Source: a virus. From it: a DNA stretch of 39,563 nucleotides. Within the stretch, counting starts at the first letter, position 1. Each line of letters begins with the position of its first letter. This document shows positions 3,316 to 35,806 of this stretch, one piece after another. Location of the stretch: the UHGV virus genome UHGV-0170560. One strand, 5' to 3'. A program made the translations under genes and the position numbers. The notes under the pieces were generated by a model. It made no database searches. It was given only the letters and a program-made list of their open reading frames with translations, and was not told the origin of the DNA.

Positions 3316-5901
3316 TTACATCTGGTTATTAATTTTCATTTCAATATTTTTAATGCGCTCAACCAATCCTCGCATAATGAAACGATCAAGTTCTTGATCG
3401 CGGAATTGCCACAAATCTCCTGCTTTCTTAACTAATTTTTTTTCACCAGTATTCACAGGAACAATGAATTTTTCACCATTTTGATCCGTAATTAACTCAT
3501 CTTTAATGACATCTTCATATACATCATCCCATTTGTCATACCCTATAAATCCATAATCTCGCCAGTCCAGGCCCTCATCCTCTAAAACAGCAATAACTGC
3601 CTGAACAGTGGTGCCAGAGTGCAACCTTTTAGAATCATCATCAATCCATGTCCAGAAACCTAGCAGATCAGCCACTTTAATTGCTGCATTAATTTCAGAT
3701 TTGGTGAATCCGCGAATCGGGTCTTTAAGACGACCATCTGAACTTGACTGGGTTCCTCCGGCAAAATAACCAATGTTATATCGTAGTGATGCGCTACCTA
3801 TATTTGAAGTGGCATCAGCTCCAGGAGTGATTCCCCCTGATGTTGCTATTTGCATTGCTGGAGTAGATCCAGACCCATCAGGTCTGAACTGTAATTGACC
3901 TACACTGTTGTATTGTGTTCTCATGAACCAAGATGTAGCATTGCCATTACTGAGCAGGCCAAGAATAGCATCAGAACCAGATGGAGCCGATACAGTGTAC
4001 ATTCCTGTCTTAGTGAGTGACGTCATGGTTTTTCCATCCTTGCTGACCAATAGTCTGTCGGAGCTTGCATCCATCATCACTTTCCATCCTGTAGACCCAT
4101 CAGCAGCATTCTTCGTAAACTGAATTGATGCGTCACCAATATTCCCATCAGAGCCAAGAATTGCAACGGTATAACCGCCTGCTGGGTCTTTACCCACAAC
4201 TCCAAATCTACCGTTTAGCGGATCGCCTGAAACTATTATTTTTACAGGAATCACTCCGGCAAAATTGTCATTAAATATCTGAGAAATATAATTCATGCGC
4301 ATGCCATAAAAACTAACACCTCTCTTTACATTCTCAGAACCAATAAAAGTCGGAATATCTGAATTTGTAATACCATAAGGTGATTGCTCTACCACACCAC
4401 CATAAAACTGGATGTTGGATGCGTGATCAAATTCTAATGCATGATTAGCTCTGGTTCTAAACTCACAGCCATAAAAGTAATGCCCATTTATTTCAGCGGA
4501 TGTCGCATTAACATCACCATCTATATAAAGGCATCGCCATGTGTTTGCGCTAGAGTAATAAGAAACAAGCTCTTCATGAGACATTGATGCGCGACTGTGG
4601 TGATCAAGGGTATAAATACCACATTTATCTACTCTAGTTCCGCTGAGACCATAACTTGCAGGCCCAGTGTTTGAACCAAGAATTGCTAAACCGACTCGCC
4701 CCATAGTTGACCCACCAGTAATGGTATTGTAATCAGGGTCATCGTTTCCTTGCTTTGACTGAATTATTGTACCTGCTTTTGAAAAGTATCCGAATACACA
4801 AACATCCTCCTGAAGATTTCTTGCAGAGTCATCGTAATAAACCCCACACTCATAATCTGCACGTTGGTCTTCATCAGGTTTTGTGTGATTACCGATGGAA
4901 TCATAACAAATCATGTCTTGAACCACGGCAATGCCTTTAAGGACAGATCCACTTGAACCATATTCTGGAGAAAGAACTCTCACGCAATATCGAACACTTG
5001 CGAAATGATCGTCTCTGTTATCTGTAGTAGCTATCTTTGTTCCTGCTCCAGAAAATATAAACGTAGCACCAGGCATATTTTCTTTTCTACCTTCAGCAAG
5101 AAAGAATTTGTCATCATCAGTACCAAATCCAAGAACAGGAGAACCATTACCAATGAATCGAAAATCACCAGGTATTTCTATACCATCAGAGAATCGATAA
5201 ACCCCATCAGGAACAAAAAAAGTTTTCTTTCCAGATGCAAGCAAAGCCTGCCACTGCGTTAAGTTGTCCGTTTTATAGTCACCTTTTAATCCAAAATCGG
5301 TTATGCTGACTGTATCTCGCATCTTATCCTGGAACGTTCGATATATCGCACCAGAACCATACTGAATAAACCAACCAAAACCACCAACAACTCCGGCGAT
5401 TGCAGCATCAACATAATTACGCATTGAGCGATTATTTACAGCATCCTGCTCAAGTGATGGATCTGCAAGGTTAGAAATTCTGTTTTGCTTTGCATCGTAA
5501 TATTTTGCAAGCAAAGATGGTTTCATCAATGCACGTCTGAACCACCCAAAACATTGCTGGATCAGCATCGTCAGGTAGTCAAAAGCATCTTCATGCACTT
5601 CGGGGAAAAATTTTCCCTGATTGCGAAGGTCTGTCTCCTGCACTACATCAAGCACACGATCTATCGTAATTCGCCATCCAGCAGCAAGCGGCGACGGAAG
5701 AACAACAGAACCGCCACTATAAGTGCCCGCCCCAGTTACCGTATAACCGGTATCCAGAACCAATTCTGTTACGTTCCCGTTCAGGTCAGACACCTGAACA
5801 ACCAGGTCGGATTTTTTGAAAATACGGAAGGTATACGGAAATGATGTCGTAGCGCCGTTACCGGTGTATTCGTTGTGGTCAACTTCGGTTGAGACCGTCA
5901 T
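3316..5901 (-). CDS. Tail fibre/tailspike with T7 gp17-like N-terminal adaptor domain and C-terminal intramolecular chaperone (peptidase S74-like) domain
   Basis: 861 aa; N-terminal ~110 aa resemble the T7 gp17 adaptor region by recollection; C-terminal ~140 aa begin with SSDGRLKD (S-D-x-R-x-K autoprocessing motif); central part AT-rich. Confidence 0.8.
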   Translation of the reverse strand: MTVSTEVDHNEYTGNGATTSFPYTFRIFKKSDLVVQVSDLNGNVTELVLDTGYTVTGAGTYSGGSVVLPSPLAAGWRITIDRVLDVVQETDLRNQGKFFPEVHEDAFDYLTMLIQQCFGWFRRALMKPSLLAKYYDAKQNRISNLADPSLEQDAVNNRSMRNYVDAAIAGVVGGFGWFIQYGSGAIYRTFQDKMRDTVSITDFGLKGDYKTDNLTQWQALLASGKKTFFVPDGVYRFSDGIEIPGDFRFIGNGSPVLGFGTDDDKFFLAEGRKENMPGATFIFSGAGTKIATTDNRDDHFASVRYCVRVLSPEYGSSGSVLKGIAVVQDMICYDSIGNHTKPDEDQRADYECGVYYDDSARNLQEDVCVFGYFSKAGTIIQSKQGNDDPDYNTITGGSTMGRVGLAILGSNTGPASYGLSGTRVDKCGIYTLDHHSRASMSHEELVSYYSSANTWRCLYIDGDVNATSAEINGHYFYGCEFRTRANHALEFDHASNIQFYGGVVEQSPYGITNSDIPTFIGSENVKRGVSFYGMRMNYISQIFNDNFAGVIPVKIIVSGDPLNGRFGVVGKDPAGGYTVAILGSDGNIGDASIQFTKNAADGSTGWKVMMDASSDRLLVSKDGKTMTSLTKTGMYTVSAPSGSDAILGLLSNGNATSWFMRTQYNSVGQLQFRPDGSGSTPAMQIATSGGITPGADATSNIGSASLRYNIGYFAGGTQSSSDGRLKDPIRGFTKSEINAAIKVADLLGFWTWIDDDSKRLHSGTTVQAVIAVLEDEGLDWRDYGFIGYDKWDDVYEDVIKDELITDQNGEKFIVPVNTGEKKLVKKAGDLWQFRDQELDRFIMRGLVERIKNIEMKINNQM

Positions 5902-6059
5902 GTTAAATCTCCAGATAGTCGCAGCACCCGTTGCGCCGCATATCTGGTTATTCTATTACCTGAAAAACCACATATGGATAGATAACCCATAAATACGAAA
6001 AGATATTACCTTTCAGGTGATTTGCAAAACGTGCTGGATAGCAAACAAATTATTTGATA

Positions 6060-6075
6060 CTGTATATTTATACAG
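6060..6075 (+). promoter_or_regulatory. LexA (SOS) box
   Basis: CTGTATATTTATACAG = CTGT-N8-ACAG with AT-rich spacer, flanked TA..TT, about 20 nt upstream of the 6097 start codon. Confidence 0.65.
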
Positions 6076-6096
6076 TTATTGCATGGAGAAGATAAG

Positions 6097-6354
6097 ATGC
6101 AGCAGTATCACTATCCACTGGAAGACGGATTTACCGAAAGGATTCACACGCCGGGAGGCGTCAGATCACTGGTGGAGGGATCGCACTTGATGAAATTACT
6201 CCGGGATCTCGATAAGGATGGATTTAATGTCGATGGCCCACTTGCCGAACTGACTGCACTGATTAACTACGTCACCAGCTCACAGATGTCTATGCGGGAT
6301 CTGCAAACACATCTCGACTATTGTGCCGAACAATTACGAAAACAAACCAGATAA
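6097..6354 (+). CDS. Small protein paralogous to the C-terminal domain of the downstream antirepressor
   Basis: 85 aa from ATG with GGAGAA RBS (track ORF begins at an upstream TTG); aligns with the last ~65 aa of the 6670..7380 protein (shared pattern IH.P.GV..L.E.S.LM.LL..L..DG..V.G..AELT....Y.......RD.QTH..Y). Confidence 0.6.
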   Translation: MQQYHYPLEDGFTERIHTPGGVRSLVEGSHLMKLLRDLDKDGFNVDGPLAELTALINYVTSSQMSMRDLQTHLDYCAEQLRKQTR

Positions 6355-6490
6355 GGTTTGCAATTACCAAGTGGAGTGCTTATATTTACCTTTGAGGTGA
6401 ATTTACATCGCACTCCTCTTATGCCATAGTAATCGGGCACTGGCAAAATCCAGTGCCGGGATTGGCGTCCCGGGTTACTAAGTGGCGCAT

Positions 6491-6514
6491 ACCACGCCAG
6501 ACGTGGTTTTTTTA
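6491..6514 (+). terminator. Rho-independent terminator-like hairpin
   Basis: Stem ACCACG/CGTGGT with loop CCAGA followed by TTTTTTT. Confidence 0.6.
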
Positions 6515-6669
6515 TGCGTTAAGCACAGCTATATCCGAATTATGGTGGGCTGGGCAGGGGTCCGAAAGGACGCCGGTACCACTTAGGCCGGTACGCCAAC
6601 CTTGTCCAGTTCACCACCAGTAATTGGCGTTGCGGTGGTGATTAAAATCACTAAGTGGAGATAACCACC

Positions 6670-7380
6670 ATGGCTAATGCTCAAACTGCCATCTTCAAAT
6701 TTGAATCTGTTAACCCTATCCGTTCCATCATTATCGATGGCCAACCATGGTTTGTAGCCCAAGACGTTTGTAGTGCGCTGCGTATCCAAAACGTCACCCA
6801 AGCACTTGAAAAACTGGATGATGATGAAAGGTCTATGTTCAACATAGGGCATGAACATCGTGCAATTTTTGACAGCCGAGTAAAAGAGATCAACATCATC
6901 TCCGAGTCAGGCCTCTACACACTGATCCTCCGCTGCCGCGACGCAGTGACACCAGGCACTATCCCCTACCGCTTTCGTAAATGGGTTACAGGTGAGGTTC
7001 TTCCTCAGATCCGCCGCACCGGAAGTTACATTAAAAACTCGCTCCCGCAGGAAGAACGCATAAAGATGGTTGCCGACCAGGTAGCCAACGCCACGGCGTC
7101 AGCAGTAATGCAGGCGATGAAGATAGAGAACAAAACCTACAGCGCCCCGCTGCAGCCCGGCTACCGCAGCCTGATTCACTCGCCGTCTGGTGTTCTCGGC
7201 CTGACGGAGAACTCACTGCTGATGAATCTGCTGAACCAGTTACAGGACGACGGGCACGACGTATCGGGCGCGGCGGCGGAGCTGACCACCATGTTCTGCT
7301 ACATCGTCGGTGTGAGTAAATGCCTGCGTGATATCCAGACCCACGCGGAATACATCAACGACAAGGCAGGGTTCTTCTGA
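6670..7380 (+). CDS. Antirepressor (Bro-N domain protein)
   Basis: 236 aa from ATG preceded by GGAG; N-terminal Bro-N hallmarks (WFVAQDVCSAL, ISESGLYTLIL, FRKWVTGEVLPQIRRTGSY). Confidence 0.8.
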   Translation: MANAQTAIFKFESVNPIRSIIIDGQPWFVAQDVCSALRIQNVTQALEKLDDDERSMFNIGHEHRAIFDSRVKEINIISESGLYTLILRCRDAVTPGTIPYRFRKWVTGEVLPQIRRTGSYIKNSLPQEERIKMVADQVANATASAVMQAMKIENKTYSAPLQPGYRSLIHSPSGVLGLTENSLLMNLLNQLQDDGHDVSGAAAELTTMFCYIVGVSKCLRDIQTHAEYINDKAGFF

Positions 7381-7504
7381 CGGGCGGCGGCACAGGGATG
7401 TGCCTTTAAATAATTCTGTACGATTGCAGACAGGGGGGTGAATAGAGTACTATTACCTTACGGGTGATCCATAGCGATTAGGCACCGATACAGGAGGAGC
7501 CCAC

Positions 7505-7537
7505 ATGAGAAAATTTGACGAGTACGAAGGCGTTTAA
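7505..7537 (+). CDS. Possible 10-codon leader peptide (MRKFDEYEGV)
   Basis: Strong RBS CAGGAGGAG 5-8 nt upstream; located between an operator-like palindrome and a terminator hairpin; too short to call confidently. Confidence 0.25.
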   Translation: MRKFDEYEGV

Positions 7538-7555
7538 CATTCGGATAGTTTAATG

Positions 7556-7579
7556 ACGGGGCCATTAGGCCCCGTTTTC
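7556..7579 (+). terminator. Rho-independent terminator / possible attenuator
   Basis: Stem ACGGGGCC/GGCCCCGT with loop ATTA followed by TTTT; immediately upstream of the 7597 gene. Confidence 0.6.
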
Positions 7580-7596
7580 ATGTCTGGAGACAGTTT

Positions 7597-8136
7597 GTGT
7601 TAAGTGAAGAAATGCAATTTGCCATGGCTGTGGCTCAAATCGTAAGTGCAGTCGCGGTTTCGCTTGGCTTGTTCATAGCTATCGCTACTATTATTTATAA
7701 TGTAAATACAGCGAGAAAAGTACACACTTCAGTATTCCTTGGTGAAAGCAGGTTTGATGTAGATTATAAGAAAGGCCTATCTACTATGCGCCGCATTCAC
7801 GAATCGAACAAATCATTCCGCTCTTATATGTATCCAAGCAATGGGCAGGCTGATCTTACGGATGAAGAAAAGATAGAGAAGAGAGAAATAATTTACTGTC
7901 TAGGTTTCTACGAACGCATGGCTGTGAGCGTGAAGCGGAAAACTTATGATGAGACCATGATTAAGGAAGTATTTTACAGCTCCGTTGTAAATAACTATCA
8001 GATTGCGCTACCTCTTATACAAGCTATTAGAGAAAAAGAAAACATAAACACATATTTTAAAGAATATGAATGGTTGGCAACACGATGGAAGGATTGTCCA
8101 TTGAAGGATAAATCCCCATGGTACAAGTTTTGGTAA
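7597..8136 (+). CDS. Membrane-anchored accessory protein; candidate superinfection-exclusion/defence protein
   Basis: 179 aa, GTG start with GGAG RBS; N-terminal TM helix; markedly AT-rich relative to the structural genes; position matches the P22 immI/sieA neighbourhood next to the tailspike. Confidence 0.55.
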   Translation: MLSEEMQFAMAVAQIVSAVAVSLGLFIAIATIIYNVNTARKVHTSVFLGESRFDVDYKKGLSTMRRIHESNKSFRSYMYPSNGQADLTDEEKIEKREIIYCLGFYERMAVSVKRKTYDETMIKEVFYSSVVNNYQIALPLIQAIREKENINTYFKEYEWLATRWKDCPLKDKSPWYKFW

Positions 8137-25320: not shown

Positions 25321-25397
25321 GTGGCATTAGCTCAGTTGGACAGAGCAACCGCCTTCTAAGCGGTTGGCCGCAGGTTCGAATCCTGCATGCCACGCCA
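25321..25397 (+). tRNA. tRNA-Arg (anticodon UCU), CCA encoded
   Basis: Hand-folded cloverleaf: acceptor GTGGCAT/ATGCCAC, D-stem GCTC/GAGC, anticodon stem ACCGC/GCGGT with loop CTTCTAA, T-stem GCAGG/CCTGC with TTCGAAT loop; argU-like. Confidence 0.9.
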
Positions 25398-32755: not shown

Positions 32756-32872
32756 GATTTACCCCTTAGGTAATTAAAAACCACATAAGACATGAAATCA
32801 ATAGAAGTTAGAAGATTTTATTACCTTCTAGGTAATCATATAGACGTAAAAAAATGCGCTATCGCGCTGGTA

Positions 32873-34836: not shown

Positions 34837-35067
34837 TCATGAGTAGAAGAAGTATGCCAGTTCTGCTTTTGAGCGCAGCCATTGTCTTGTTTTACAGGCT
34901 TTAAAAAGCCCATTCATCAATACTTTACCTGGCATTTTGCGCTTACCTGTTAAGTGAGTCTGGATATAGTGACTCGTCGTTCCGGCTTCCTGTGCGAAGG
35001 CTTCACGCTCATCCGGAGTAAGTGCAAGCCAGTGCTTTTTGAAATCGAAATGTCCGTTATCGCTCAT
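34837..35067 (-). CDS. Cro-like HTH regulator
   Basis: 76 aa with HTH-like segment EAFAQEAGTTSHYIQTHLTG; divergent from the repressor gene across an operator-rich intergenic region. Confidence 0.55.
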   Translation of the reverse strand: MSDNGHFDFKKHWLALTPDEREAFAQEAGTTSHYIQTHLTGKRKMPGKVLMNGLFKACKTRQWLRSKAELAYFFYS

Positions 35068-35103: not shown

Positions 35104-35166
35104 TCACCCATAAGGTAACAAAAATCAAGGATAGTTACCTATGGGGTGCATTTACCTGTTGGGTAA
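35104..35166. promoter_or_regulatory. Three adjacent operator-like palindromes in the repressor/cro intergenic region
   Basis: TCACC-CATAA-GGTAA (35104-35118), TTACC-TATGG-GGTGC (35135-35149), TTACC-TGTTG-GGTAA (35152-35166). Confidence 0.6.
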
Positions 35167-35221: not shown

Positions 35222-35806
35222 ATGAAAAGTATCCAGGACGTCCGCAGGCAAAATCTCAACGACTTGATCGACCGTGAATTCAATGGTGTTCAGACGCGGA
35301 TGGCAGAAAAACTTGGAACTCAGGCAAATCTGGTAAACCGCTGGGCTCTTGGCAAGAAGGTTATCGGCGACCAGGTTGCGCGAAAAATTGAAGCTGCCGC
35401 CAATAAACCACGTAACTGGCTTGATATCGATCGCTCGCTTTCTCAGGAAGGTTTTCAGCCTGTCGGCCCAAGCGACATTGGTCAGCTGGCGGCTCACAAC
35501 CTGGAACGCTGGATGAGCGAAAGCCGCGACCTTTCAACACAGGGAAAACTTCACCGCGCATCCGGCGTCGCCCAGGTGACAATCAGCCGCCTGTTAAACA
35601 ATGAGGTCAGCGTTTCCATTTCCACCCTGGAGAATGTTGCATCTGCATTCGGGCGTCACGGATATGAATTACTGATTCACCCGCACGACCCCGCGACTAT
35701 CAACTATGACCGCTCGCGCTACGCATTGTTACCTGAAACAGAGAAGGCAAAGATCGAAAGTTACATTGAATTTGTCATCAACCAGAACGAAAAAAGCAAA
35801 CAATAA
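35222..35806 (+). CDS. CI-like repressor without recognisable S24 autocleavage domain
   Basis: 194 aa with two HTH-like segments; no Ser/Lys peptidase-type C-terminal motifs recognised. Confidence 0.6.
   Translation: MKSIQDVRRQNLNDLIDREFNGVQTRMAEKLGTQANLVNRWALGKKVIGDQVARKIEAAANKPRNWLDIDRSLSQEGFQPVGPSDIGQLAAHNLERWMSESRDLSTQGKLHRASGVAQVTISRLLNNEVSVSISTLENVASAFGRHGYELLIHPHDPATINYDRSRYALLPETEKAKIESYIEFVINQNEKSKQ

Follow-up and report, generated by a model that had tools for sequence, protein, structure and literature searches.

The stretch of viral DNA analysed here (the window) is UHGV virus genome UHGV-0170560, 39,563 nucleotides (nt) long, and our subject is the 315-bp interval at 6355–6669 that separates a small open reading frame (ORF) from an antirepressor gene, ant. 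The borders drawn in an earlier sequence-only reading of this DNA were correct: the upstream ORF (85 aa, ATG 6097) has its stop at 6354 and the ATG of ant lies at 6670. The ant gene (6670–7380, + strand), the presumed regulated gene of the system described below, encodes a 236-aa Bro-N antirepressor (Pfam Bro-N, 9.7e-20; PHROG anti-repressor Ant families). Homologues of two structured RNAs, IsrK and C4, lie within the interval, and sites complementary to C4 recur in the ant leader. Positions 5900–7600 were 98.8% identical to Escherichia phage HEMP4 and 92–94% identical to phiV10, TL-2011b and vB_EcoP_ZX5, all four being epsilon15-like temperate podophages of the genus Uetakevirus. In the window phage the locus lies between genes for the tailspike and for an internal virion protein. 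In the phiV10 record a 'putative rho-independent terminator' is the sole annotation of the same interval, with no RNA gene.

We searched the whole 39.5-kb window against Rfam at the curated thresholds and recovered three matches: a distant tRNA-Arg, isrK and C4. The isrK family (RF01394) matched 6437–6513 over its full-length model (1–77) with 67.7 bits against a threshold of 50 (E 1.6e-12), and C4 (RF01695) matched 6538–6621, also over the full-length model (1–87), with 66 bits against a threshold of 45 (E 8.4e-11). The covariance-model search, which the sequence-only reading had suggested as a check, thus placed two RNA families above their thresholds in the interval. A permissive search added c4-a1b1 (RF03163, 'a1, b1 targets of C4 antisense RNA') at 6424–6476, over the first two hairpins of IsrK.

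The IsrK-type small RNA (sRNA), which is also the c4-a1b1 element, occupies 6437–6513 (+) and comprises hairpin 1 (6437–6456), hairpin 2 (6457–6472), a single-stranded stretch and a terminator hairpin with its U-run (6491–6513). Its predicted fold had these three hairpins (z = -2.4). Two structures noted in the earlier reading, a hairpin at 6436–6457 (GGCACTGG/CAAAAT/CCAGTGCC) and the terminator at 6491–6513, are present; the former is the first hairpin of IsrK and the latter its last. A terminator scan also found the second of these, ACCACG..CGTGGT with T7 behind it, which has a modest stem of 6 bp. The short terminated transcript that had been proposed for the interval is, judged from the 67.7-bit match and the terminator, an IsrK homologue of ~77 nt encoded in the gap.

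The C4 antisense RNA (6538–6621, +) is built from a 17-bp closing stem (6543–6559 with 6600–6616), hairpin A (6560–6571), hairpin B (6572–6592) and a CCA at 6617–6619. Its fold was strongly stable on the + strand (-43.6 kcal/mol, z = -5.0), with identical minimum free energy (MFE) and centroid structures, and RNA folding, another check suggested earlier, was in this way positive for both RNAs. The minus strand of the C4 segment folded no better than shuffles (z = -1.2). The acceptor-like stem followed by CCA is a sequence compatible with release by RNase P, and we infer a mature C4 of ~76 nt (6544–6619) cut by this enzyme, by analogy with P1, for which processing of C4 by RNase P is cited in the reference list of PMC4919922. 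The sequence-only reading had missed C4 and gave its position simply as about 150 nt before the antirepressor start; because C4 lies there, no other part of the gap is as structured.

Two kinds of short site, a and b, connect IsrK, C4 and the ant leader, and all of them read on the + strand. Site a' (ACGCCAA, 6593–6599) forms the single-stranded joint from hairpin B to the C4 closing stem. Its exact complement, TTGGCGT, occurs as a1 (6462–6468) in the loop of IsrK hairpin 2 and again, over 7 nt, as a2 (6624–6630) in the ant leader. Site b' (CCACUUAG / CCACTTAG, 6579–6586) is located in the loop of C4 hairpin B and is unpaired in the MFE structure. It is matched exactly by b1 (CTAAGTGG, 6478–6485) in the single-stranded part of IsrK and, over 8 nt, by b2 (CTAAGTGG, 6651–6658), which overlaps the ant Shine-Dalgarno GGAG (6657–6660); the ant ATG follows 9 nt 3' of this GGAG. 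Across the 39.5 kb, CTAAGTGG had two copies only (6478 and 6651) and its reverse complement occurred once, in the C4 loop at 6579, and TTGGCGT had one additional, unrelated copy in the window (2617). The b duplexes were predicted at -12.6 kcal/mol, and 0/500 shuffles were as good.

A different repeat, the octamer AAGTGGAG, had been singled out by the sequence-only reading. It does recur as two copies, at 6369 and 6653, not at 6370 and 6644. Only the copy at 6653 belongs to the system, where its meaningful partner is 6478–6485 in IsrK. We considered the copy at 6369 as a third target and rejected it. It falls in a promoter spacer, the corresponding sequence is unrelated in many relatives, and it stays constant where the b sites differ.

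To place these sites in a wider setting, relatives were gathered via the Ant protein (79 IMG/VR loci) and via a pattern in IsrK hairpins 1–2 with the loop left free (120 loci). Together they yielded 109 distinct isrK-C4-leader modules, in which ~20 types of a site and 54 different b' loops were represented. A MAFFT alignment held 95 modules, 93 of them distinct, and pairs were counted for a specified structure. In these 93 modules the a1:a' columns were 98.8% paired and the a':a2 columns 95–98% paired, with 6/7 pairs changed on both sides in each case, so the a sites vary together in IsrK, C4 and the leader. Structure within each RNA was likewise conserved with compensatory changes, as the comparative alignment proposed earlier had been meant to reveal: the C4 closing stem was 98.7% paired (10/17 pairs changed on both sides) and IsrK hairpin 1 was paired in 100% of cells (5/7). 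With all helices counted together, 87% of cells were paired versus ~40% in slid controls, and the observed covariation was equalled by no shuffle. The terminator columns (52%) and hairpin A columns (45%) were badly aligned, so their percentages are uninformative.

For the b sites, whose columns were weak in the alignment (see below), we used an alignment-free comparison of self with non-self combinations. Pairing of at least 8 contiguous nt between b' and b1 was found in 82% of modules versus 1.5% of non-self combinations, and between b' and b2 in 88% versus 6%. All four pairings reached at least 7 nt in 98/109 modules. The position of b2 was also maintained, its end commonly lying 7–11 nt 5' of the start codon in relatives. 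The specificity sites of the module are thus demonstrably hypervariable, and such co-varying a and b sites would fit a specificity function. They also reassort: one relative (L076) combines the b sites of the window with a different a, and phiV10 combines the a of the window with a different b. The first gene 3' of b2 was of Bro-N type in 74 modules (76–294 aa), an Icd homologue in 14 and an unrelated small ORF in a few; therefore, the RNA module is coupled to different first genes.

A few modules departed from this pattern of matching. In L130 (11053–11382, -), neither the a nor the b site of IsrK matched the C4 of its module, and the match between C4 and leader was retained. Some contigs have a pair of isrK-C4-ant modules in opposite orientation, among them L054 (670–999, -; 1683–2017, +). 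There, the a site of IsrK in the minus-strand module matches the C4 of the plus-strand module instead of its own; the C4 of the minus-strand module still matched its leader. These mismatched modules are possibly recombinants, or possibly a case of deliberate cross-talk between modules.

Upstream of IsrK, two promoter candidates flank an operator-like element. The upstream candidate (6358–6386, +) has TTGCAA, a 17-nt spacer and TATATT, with 9/12 consensus matches, and the end of its -10 and its predicted start overlap the operator. In relatives a -35/-10 pair was found in the same place with a wholly different spacer (TTGATT-18-TATCAT, TTGAAA-18-TATTAT). The PisrK candidate (6402–6430, +) has TTTACA, a 17-nt spacer and (TG)CATAGT, and its predicted start at ~6437 coincides with position 1 of the isrK model. 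Among the relative variants listed both candidates were kept, with both hexamers of PisrK unchanged. The palindrome TTACCTTTGAGGTGA (6386–6400) occupies the space from the upstream -10 to the PisrK -35. The sequence-only reading had called it operator-like, and it proved to belong to a motif of operator type, TTACCT-N4-GGTGA (one mismatch allowed), with 14 occurrences in the window versus 0.38 expected; 0/100 shuffles reached 14. Most relatives have a perfect palindrome, TTACC-N5-GGTAA, at this position.

Three of the operator motifs lie at 35104–35166, between the gene for a 194-aa likely prophage repressor (35222–35806) with two helix-turn-helix domains and a divergent cro-like gene (34837–35067). 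We infer that this repressor binds the palindrome at 6386–6400 and represses. Pfam detected no S24 LexA-like peptidase domain in it, so self-cleavage is probably impossible, as far as domain content can tell, and a repressor of this kind is more in keeping with induction by antirepressors than with self-cleavage. Further copies of the motif (TTACC-N5-GGT(G/A)A) were observed at 7453–7467, 10434, 24984, 32759–32835, 34767, 34943 and 35864. An inverted repeat around the operator, GGAGTGC/GCACTCC (6373–6379 / 6411–6417), is probably non-functional and was set aside, its left arm being missing in one spacer variant.

The arrangement resembles the immI region of P1 and P7. Knowledge of the c4 mechanism of these phages goes back to 1990, and the cataloguing of the RNA motifs to 2010. 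The P1 GenBank record gives, in order, the C1 operator Oc4, promoters P2c4 and P1c4, a1 (7 nt), b1 (8 nt) and c4 (77 nt), followed by a2 3 nt after c4, b2 (8 nt) and, 10 nt further on, the start of icd. In the window the elements follow each other in the same order at near-identical spacing, with a2 4 nt after the CCA and the ATG 11 nt after b2. The C4 fold is also the same (66 bits in the window versus 68.8 for P1 c4), b' occupying a hairpin loop and a' the 3' joint, and the operator with its two promoter candidates parallels Oc4 with P2c4/P1c4, repressor binding in the window being presumed. There are also clear differences. In P1, icd separates C4 from ant, which requires that icd be translated, whereas b2 in the window covers ant's own Shine-Dalgarno. 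The P1 a1/b1 leader scored weakly on the isrK model (35 bits), in contrast to the window, where IsrK is complete and ends in a strong terminator. This P1 leader scored 51 bits on c4-a1b1, so that the isrK and c4-a1b1 models describe one element. Moreover, P1 Ant1/2 are not Bro-N proteins, P1 is a plasmid myophage whereas the window phage is a podophage integrated in the chromosome, and the a and b sequences of P1 are unlike those of the window.

A second known counterpart is the isrK-orf45 (STnc1160)-anrP locus of Gifsy-1, which is homologous throughout, with isrK at 79 bits and C4 at 69 bits directly 5' of anrP. The a specificity is identical (TTGGCGT / ACGCCAA) and b2 overlaps the antirepressor Shine-Dalgarno in both, but the b specificity differs (ATCACCG versus CTAAGTGG in the window). 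Gifsy-1 has a 45-codon ORF, of which the window equivalent has 14 codons and ends 83 nt 5' of ant. Gifsy-1 is a lambdoid phage in which the locus adjoins antQ, and the window differs from it in having a repressor-operator motif at the promoter. In Gifsy-1 (locus L203, NC_010392, 34072–34316, -) orf45 has its first AUG at nt 107, in the AUGG that is conserved on the 5' side of the C4 stem, and covers the C4 RNA plus the a2/b2 leader.

The Gifsy-1 genetics can be read against these sites. In the numbering of that study, G28 and G31 fall in a1 (nt 26–32) and C159 and C162 in a' (nt 158–164), so the published compensatory mutations (G28/C162, G31/C159; PMC4825925) are tests of a1:a'. Short IsrK supplied in trans raised anrP translation >100-fold, and IsrK carrying G28A or G31A was without effect (PMC4825925). 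Double mutants that restore a1:a' but not a':a2 remained derepressed, at 224 and 327 units versus 4 (PMC4825925), and derepression of these mutants is what a C4 antisense RNA acting on the leader would predict.

Together, we consider it probable that the gap holds an RNA module of P1-immI type that controls the antirepressor in an epsilon15/phiV10-like temperate podophage. Transcription would start from one or two promoters flanking or overlapped by the prophage-repressor operator. As in Gifsy-1, most transcripts would end at the terminator to give IsrK, and some would read through into C4 and ant. The read-through RNA is predicted to fold C4 as a tRNA-like long stem with two internal hairpins and a CCA, from which the ~76-nt RNA would probably be released in the manner of P1. 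The hairpin loop (b') and single-stranded joint (a') of C4 would then pair with b2 and a2 of the ant leader. Because b2 overlaps the Shine-Dalgarno, this pairing would block ant translation and keep the lysogen immune, and C4 would set immunity specificity as it does in P1/P7. No upstream ORF lies between C4/b2 and ant, so the target would be the ant ribosome-binding site itself. IsrK holds a second copy of both sites (a1 and b1) and would therefore compete for C4. On the Gifsy-1 precedent, abundant IsrK would titrate C4, be it free or contained in the long transcript, and translation of ant would follow, the balance of IsrK and C4 deciding whether Ant is made. The earlier suggestion of a leader controlling the antirepressor therefore holds in part: RNA-based control is supported, but the three-way covariation points to loop–target pairing at the ant ribosome-binding site, not to a classical attenuator.

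Several points weigh against this module as described. Promoter use, the frequency of read-through, C4 processing and repression itself are carried over to the window from P1/P7 and Gifsy-1, and are to be expected rather than observed. The c4-a1b1 score of 44.1 bits fell slightly short of the 46.7-bit threshold. The b-site columns were just 30–63% paired in the MAFFT alignment (63% and 30–52%), and for this reason it is the alignment-free test that supports b pairing; in our interpretation the weakness stems from hypervariable loops of 7–15 nt and unequal length, which MAFFT cannot align. For Gifsy-1, the authors favour alternative folds of a long mRNA with orf45 coupling over a processed antisense RNA, constitutive STnc1160 (the C4 region) failed to relieve IsrK toxicity, and an a1 mutation in cis raised, not lowered, basal anrP translation (all PMC4825925). 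The last result is not predicted by a pure decoy model.

The published Gifsy-1 model would make the locus a cis-acting leader switch, in which a read-through isrK-ant mRNA folds into a silent form that IsrK refolds in trans, with no separate C4 and with the segment serving as part of the mRNA or as a small ORF. It has behind it the Gifsy-1 genetics and native gels (PMC4825925), and the window leader has a predicted fold of its own (GGUGGU:ACCACC just 5' of the AUG, z = -3.1) as well as a conserved alternative helix between the C4 3' strand and the leader that suggests conformational switching. We nevertheless regard this switch as unlikely. The 17-bp closing stem with its 10 compensatory pairs is what a discrete folded RNA would show, the segment is as strong a C4 as P1's own, a stable species (STnc1160) is made from the same region in Salmonella, and the covariation of a2/b2 finds no place in a model of A/B folds. 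Furthermore, the ORF from the conserved AUG in the C4 5' strand ends well short of ant in the window and ranges from 8 to 399 codons in relatives; because of this range, orf45 coupling cannot be general, and coupling of this kind to ant cannot apply in the window phage. The same range bears on whether the gap encodes a small protein, either a 56-aa ORF starting with GTG (6453–6623) or the 14-codon AUG ORF (6542–6586). Both ORFs appear in the mechanical list, and orf45 of Gifsy-1 has been SPA-tagged, and mutating it had an effect on anrP, but substitutions obey base-pair and not codon rules and loop indels are not multiples of three, so we give this idea very little credence. It is hardly more credible that the gap is an ordinary intergenic region, with a terminator of the small gene, an ant promoter and meaningless hairpins. 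A terminator-like hairpin with U-run does follow the small gene; however, two Rfam families above curated thresholds, extensive compensatory covariation within and between elements and a consensus scan that found no promoter-like site from the terminator to ant all speak against it.

A further alternative is control at the level of transcription, as in P4. C4 bound to nascent a1/b1 would promote IsrK termination, and bound to a2/b2 would cause premature Rho-dependent termination, perhaps in addition to the translational block. We hold this to be possible but doubtful. P4 shares with the window a processed tRNA-like RNA (CI) and target copies on both sides of it (seqA, seqC); the difference is that CI causes premature transcription termination of a replication operon and controls no antirepressor. 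Biere, Citron and Schuster are said to have found in 1992 that a block of icd translation in P1 stops ant transcription, which would count for such a mechanism. P4 CI with seqA/seqC acts in this way. IsrK has been called a structural homologue of seqA, and the stable orf45-region RNA STnc1160 was suggested possibly to resemble CI (PMC4825925). In addition, b1 lies immediately 5' of the terminator stem, and loss of C4-dependent termination predicts the raised downstream expression of the Gifsy-1 a1 cis mutants. On the other side, b2 directly over the Shine-Dalgarno is the classic signature of a translational block, and the helix that encloses the terminator (described below) is no classical antiterminator, as its 3' strand lies after the U-run. 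The sequence-only reading had drawn its analogy from P22, where the antisense RNA sar acts on ant. Both systems involve RNA pairing that represses antirepressor translation at the ribosome-binding site, but sar is encoded on the opposite strand within the ant leader and shows no homology, whereas the window regulator is upstream, on the same strand, and makes short loop–target contacts. The analogy is thus wrong in mechanism, and an opposite-strand RNA of sar type over the ant start is highly improbable: every covarying element is read on the + strand, that of ant, a consensus scan of 5850–7700 found no minus-strand promoter-like site, and the minus strand of the C4 segment has the unremarkable fold given above. 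The microRNA-size RNA 24B_1 of Shiga toxin (Stx) phage, proposed to control d_ant, was rejected as a relative; it is encoded between lom and vb_24B_43, not 5' of d_ant.

Returning to the P1-immI-type module, two further covarying helices suggest that unprocessed read-through RNA switches between folds. One encloses the terminator (6484–6520, +), pairing GGCGCAT (6484–6490) with ATGCGTT (6514–6520), and appears in the MFE structure of the long transcript. It is outside the Rfam isrK model, and its core (6486–6490 with 6514–6518) was 86.6% paired with 4/5 pairs changed on both sides. Because its 3' strand follows the U-run, it is restricted to read-through RNA, which it may stabilise or mark for processing. 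The other is an alternative hairpin (6611–6641, +) between the C4 3' strand (TCACCACC, 6611–6618) and the leader (GGTGGTGA, 6634–6641), 95.4% paired with 5/8 pairs changed on both sides. This hairpin and the C4 closing stem are mutually exclusive, and a2 would fall in the 15-nt loop of the hairpin. The leader GGUGGU can also pair with ACCACC at 6663–6668.

The module was present in 406/5426 complete E. coli genomes and in 255 phage records, many Stx phages included. Among the matches listed, either nothing or the Bro-N gene alone was annotated under it, so two regulators recognisable with Rfam are routinely missed. Nothing here is conceptually new: the mechanism was described for P1/P7, the c4 antisense RNA and c4-a1b1 motifs were published by Weinberg et al. 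2010 (PMC2864571), and so was the link between IsrK and an antirepressor (PMC4825925). What the module adds is an explanation of how epsilon15/phiV10-type phages could keep ant silent, and it brings together in one module three systems that had been described apart: P1 c4, the c4-a1b1 motif and IsrK of Salmonella. We found no description of IsrK or C4 in phages of this type in the literature. A study of ZX5, from the same genus, overexpressed the Bro-N Ant and the repressor and mentions no sRNA; overexpression of Ant, which is 39% identical to phiV10 Ant, led to less lysogeny (PMC9782041).

A broader and more tentative proposal is a combinatorial lock-and-key code of RNAs, made up of IsrK, C4 and the ant leader, in which ~20 a types and >50 b loops reassort, IsrK acts as an anti-antisense decoy made from a repressor-controlled promoter, and co-resident prophages show cross-induction or cross-immunity at the RNA level. 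Keys are common to unrelated prophages, since the a site of the window is that of Gifsy-1 and its b site occurs in several other contigs. If the proposal were true, IsrK or C4 of one prophage could derepress or silence the antirepressor of another, and Gifsy-1 'orf45' would really be C4, so that the published model would need re-interpretation.

The flanking genes yielded several further observations. The product of the 85-aa gene was 43% identical (E = 3e-16) to residues 155–228 of Ant and by this comparison represents the C-terminal domain of Ant as a separate protein. At 6058–6077, 5' of this gene, lies TACTGTATATTTATACAGTT, a LexA box close to consensus, with 0 expected by chance, and a copy of the operator motif lies at 6006–6020. 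By its appearance the 85-aa gene would be a mini-antirepressor inducible by SOS, of the kind seen in Gifsy phages or with Tum of 186. As there is no terminator between it and the IsrK promoters, SOS transcription from this gene might run into the IsrK-C4 module. On the other flank, the operator copy at 7453–7467 lies just 3' of ant and 5' of a DUF4760 gene (7597–8136), which may for this reason belong to the same repressor regulon. A short ORF 3' of ant is followed at 7540–7575 by a GC-rich hairpin, ggggccattaggcccc, and then gttttc, which resembles a terminator and may end the ant transcription unit. The distant tRNA-Arg (anticodon TCT) maps to 25321–25397 on the + strand.

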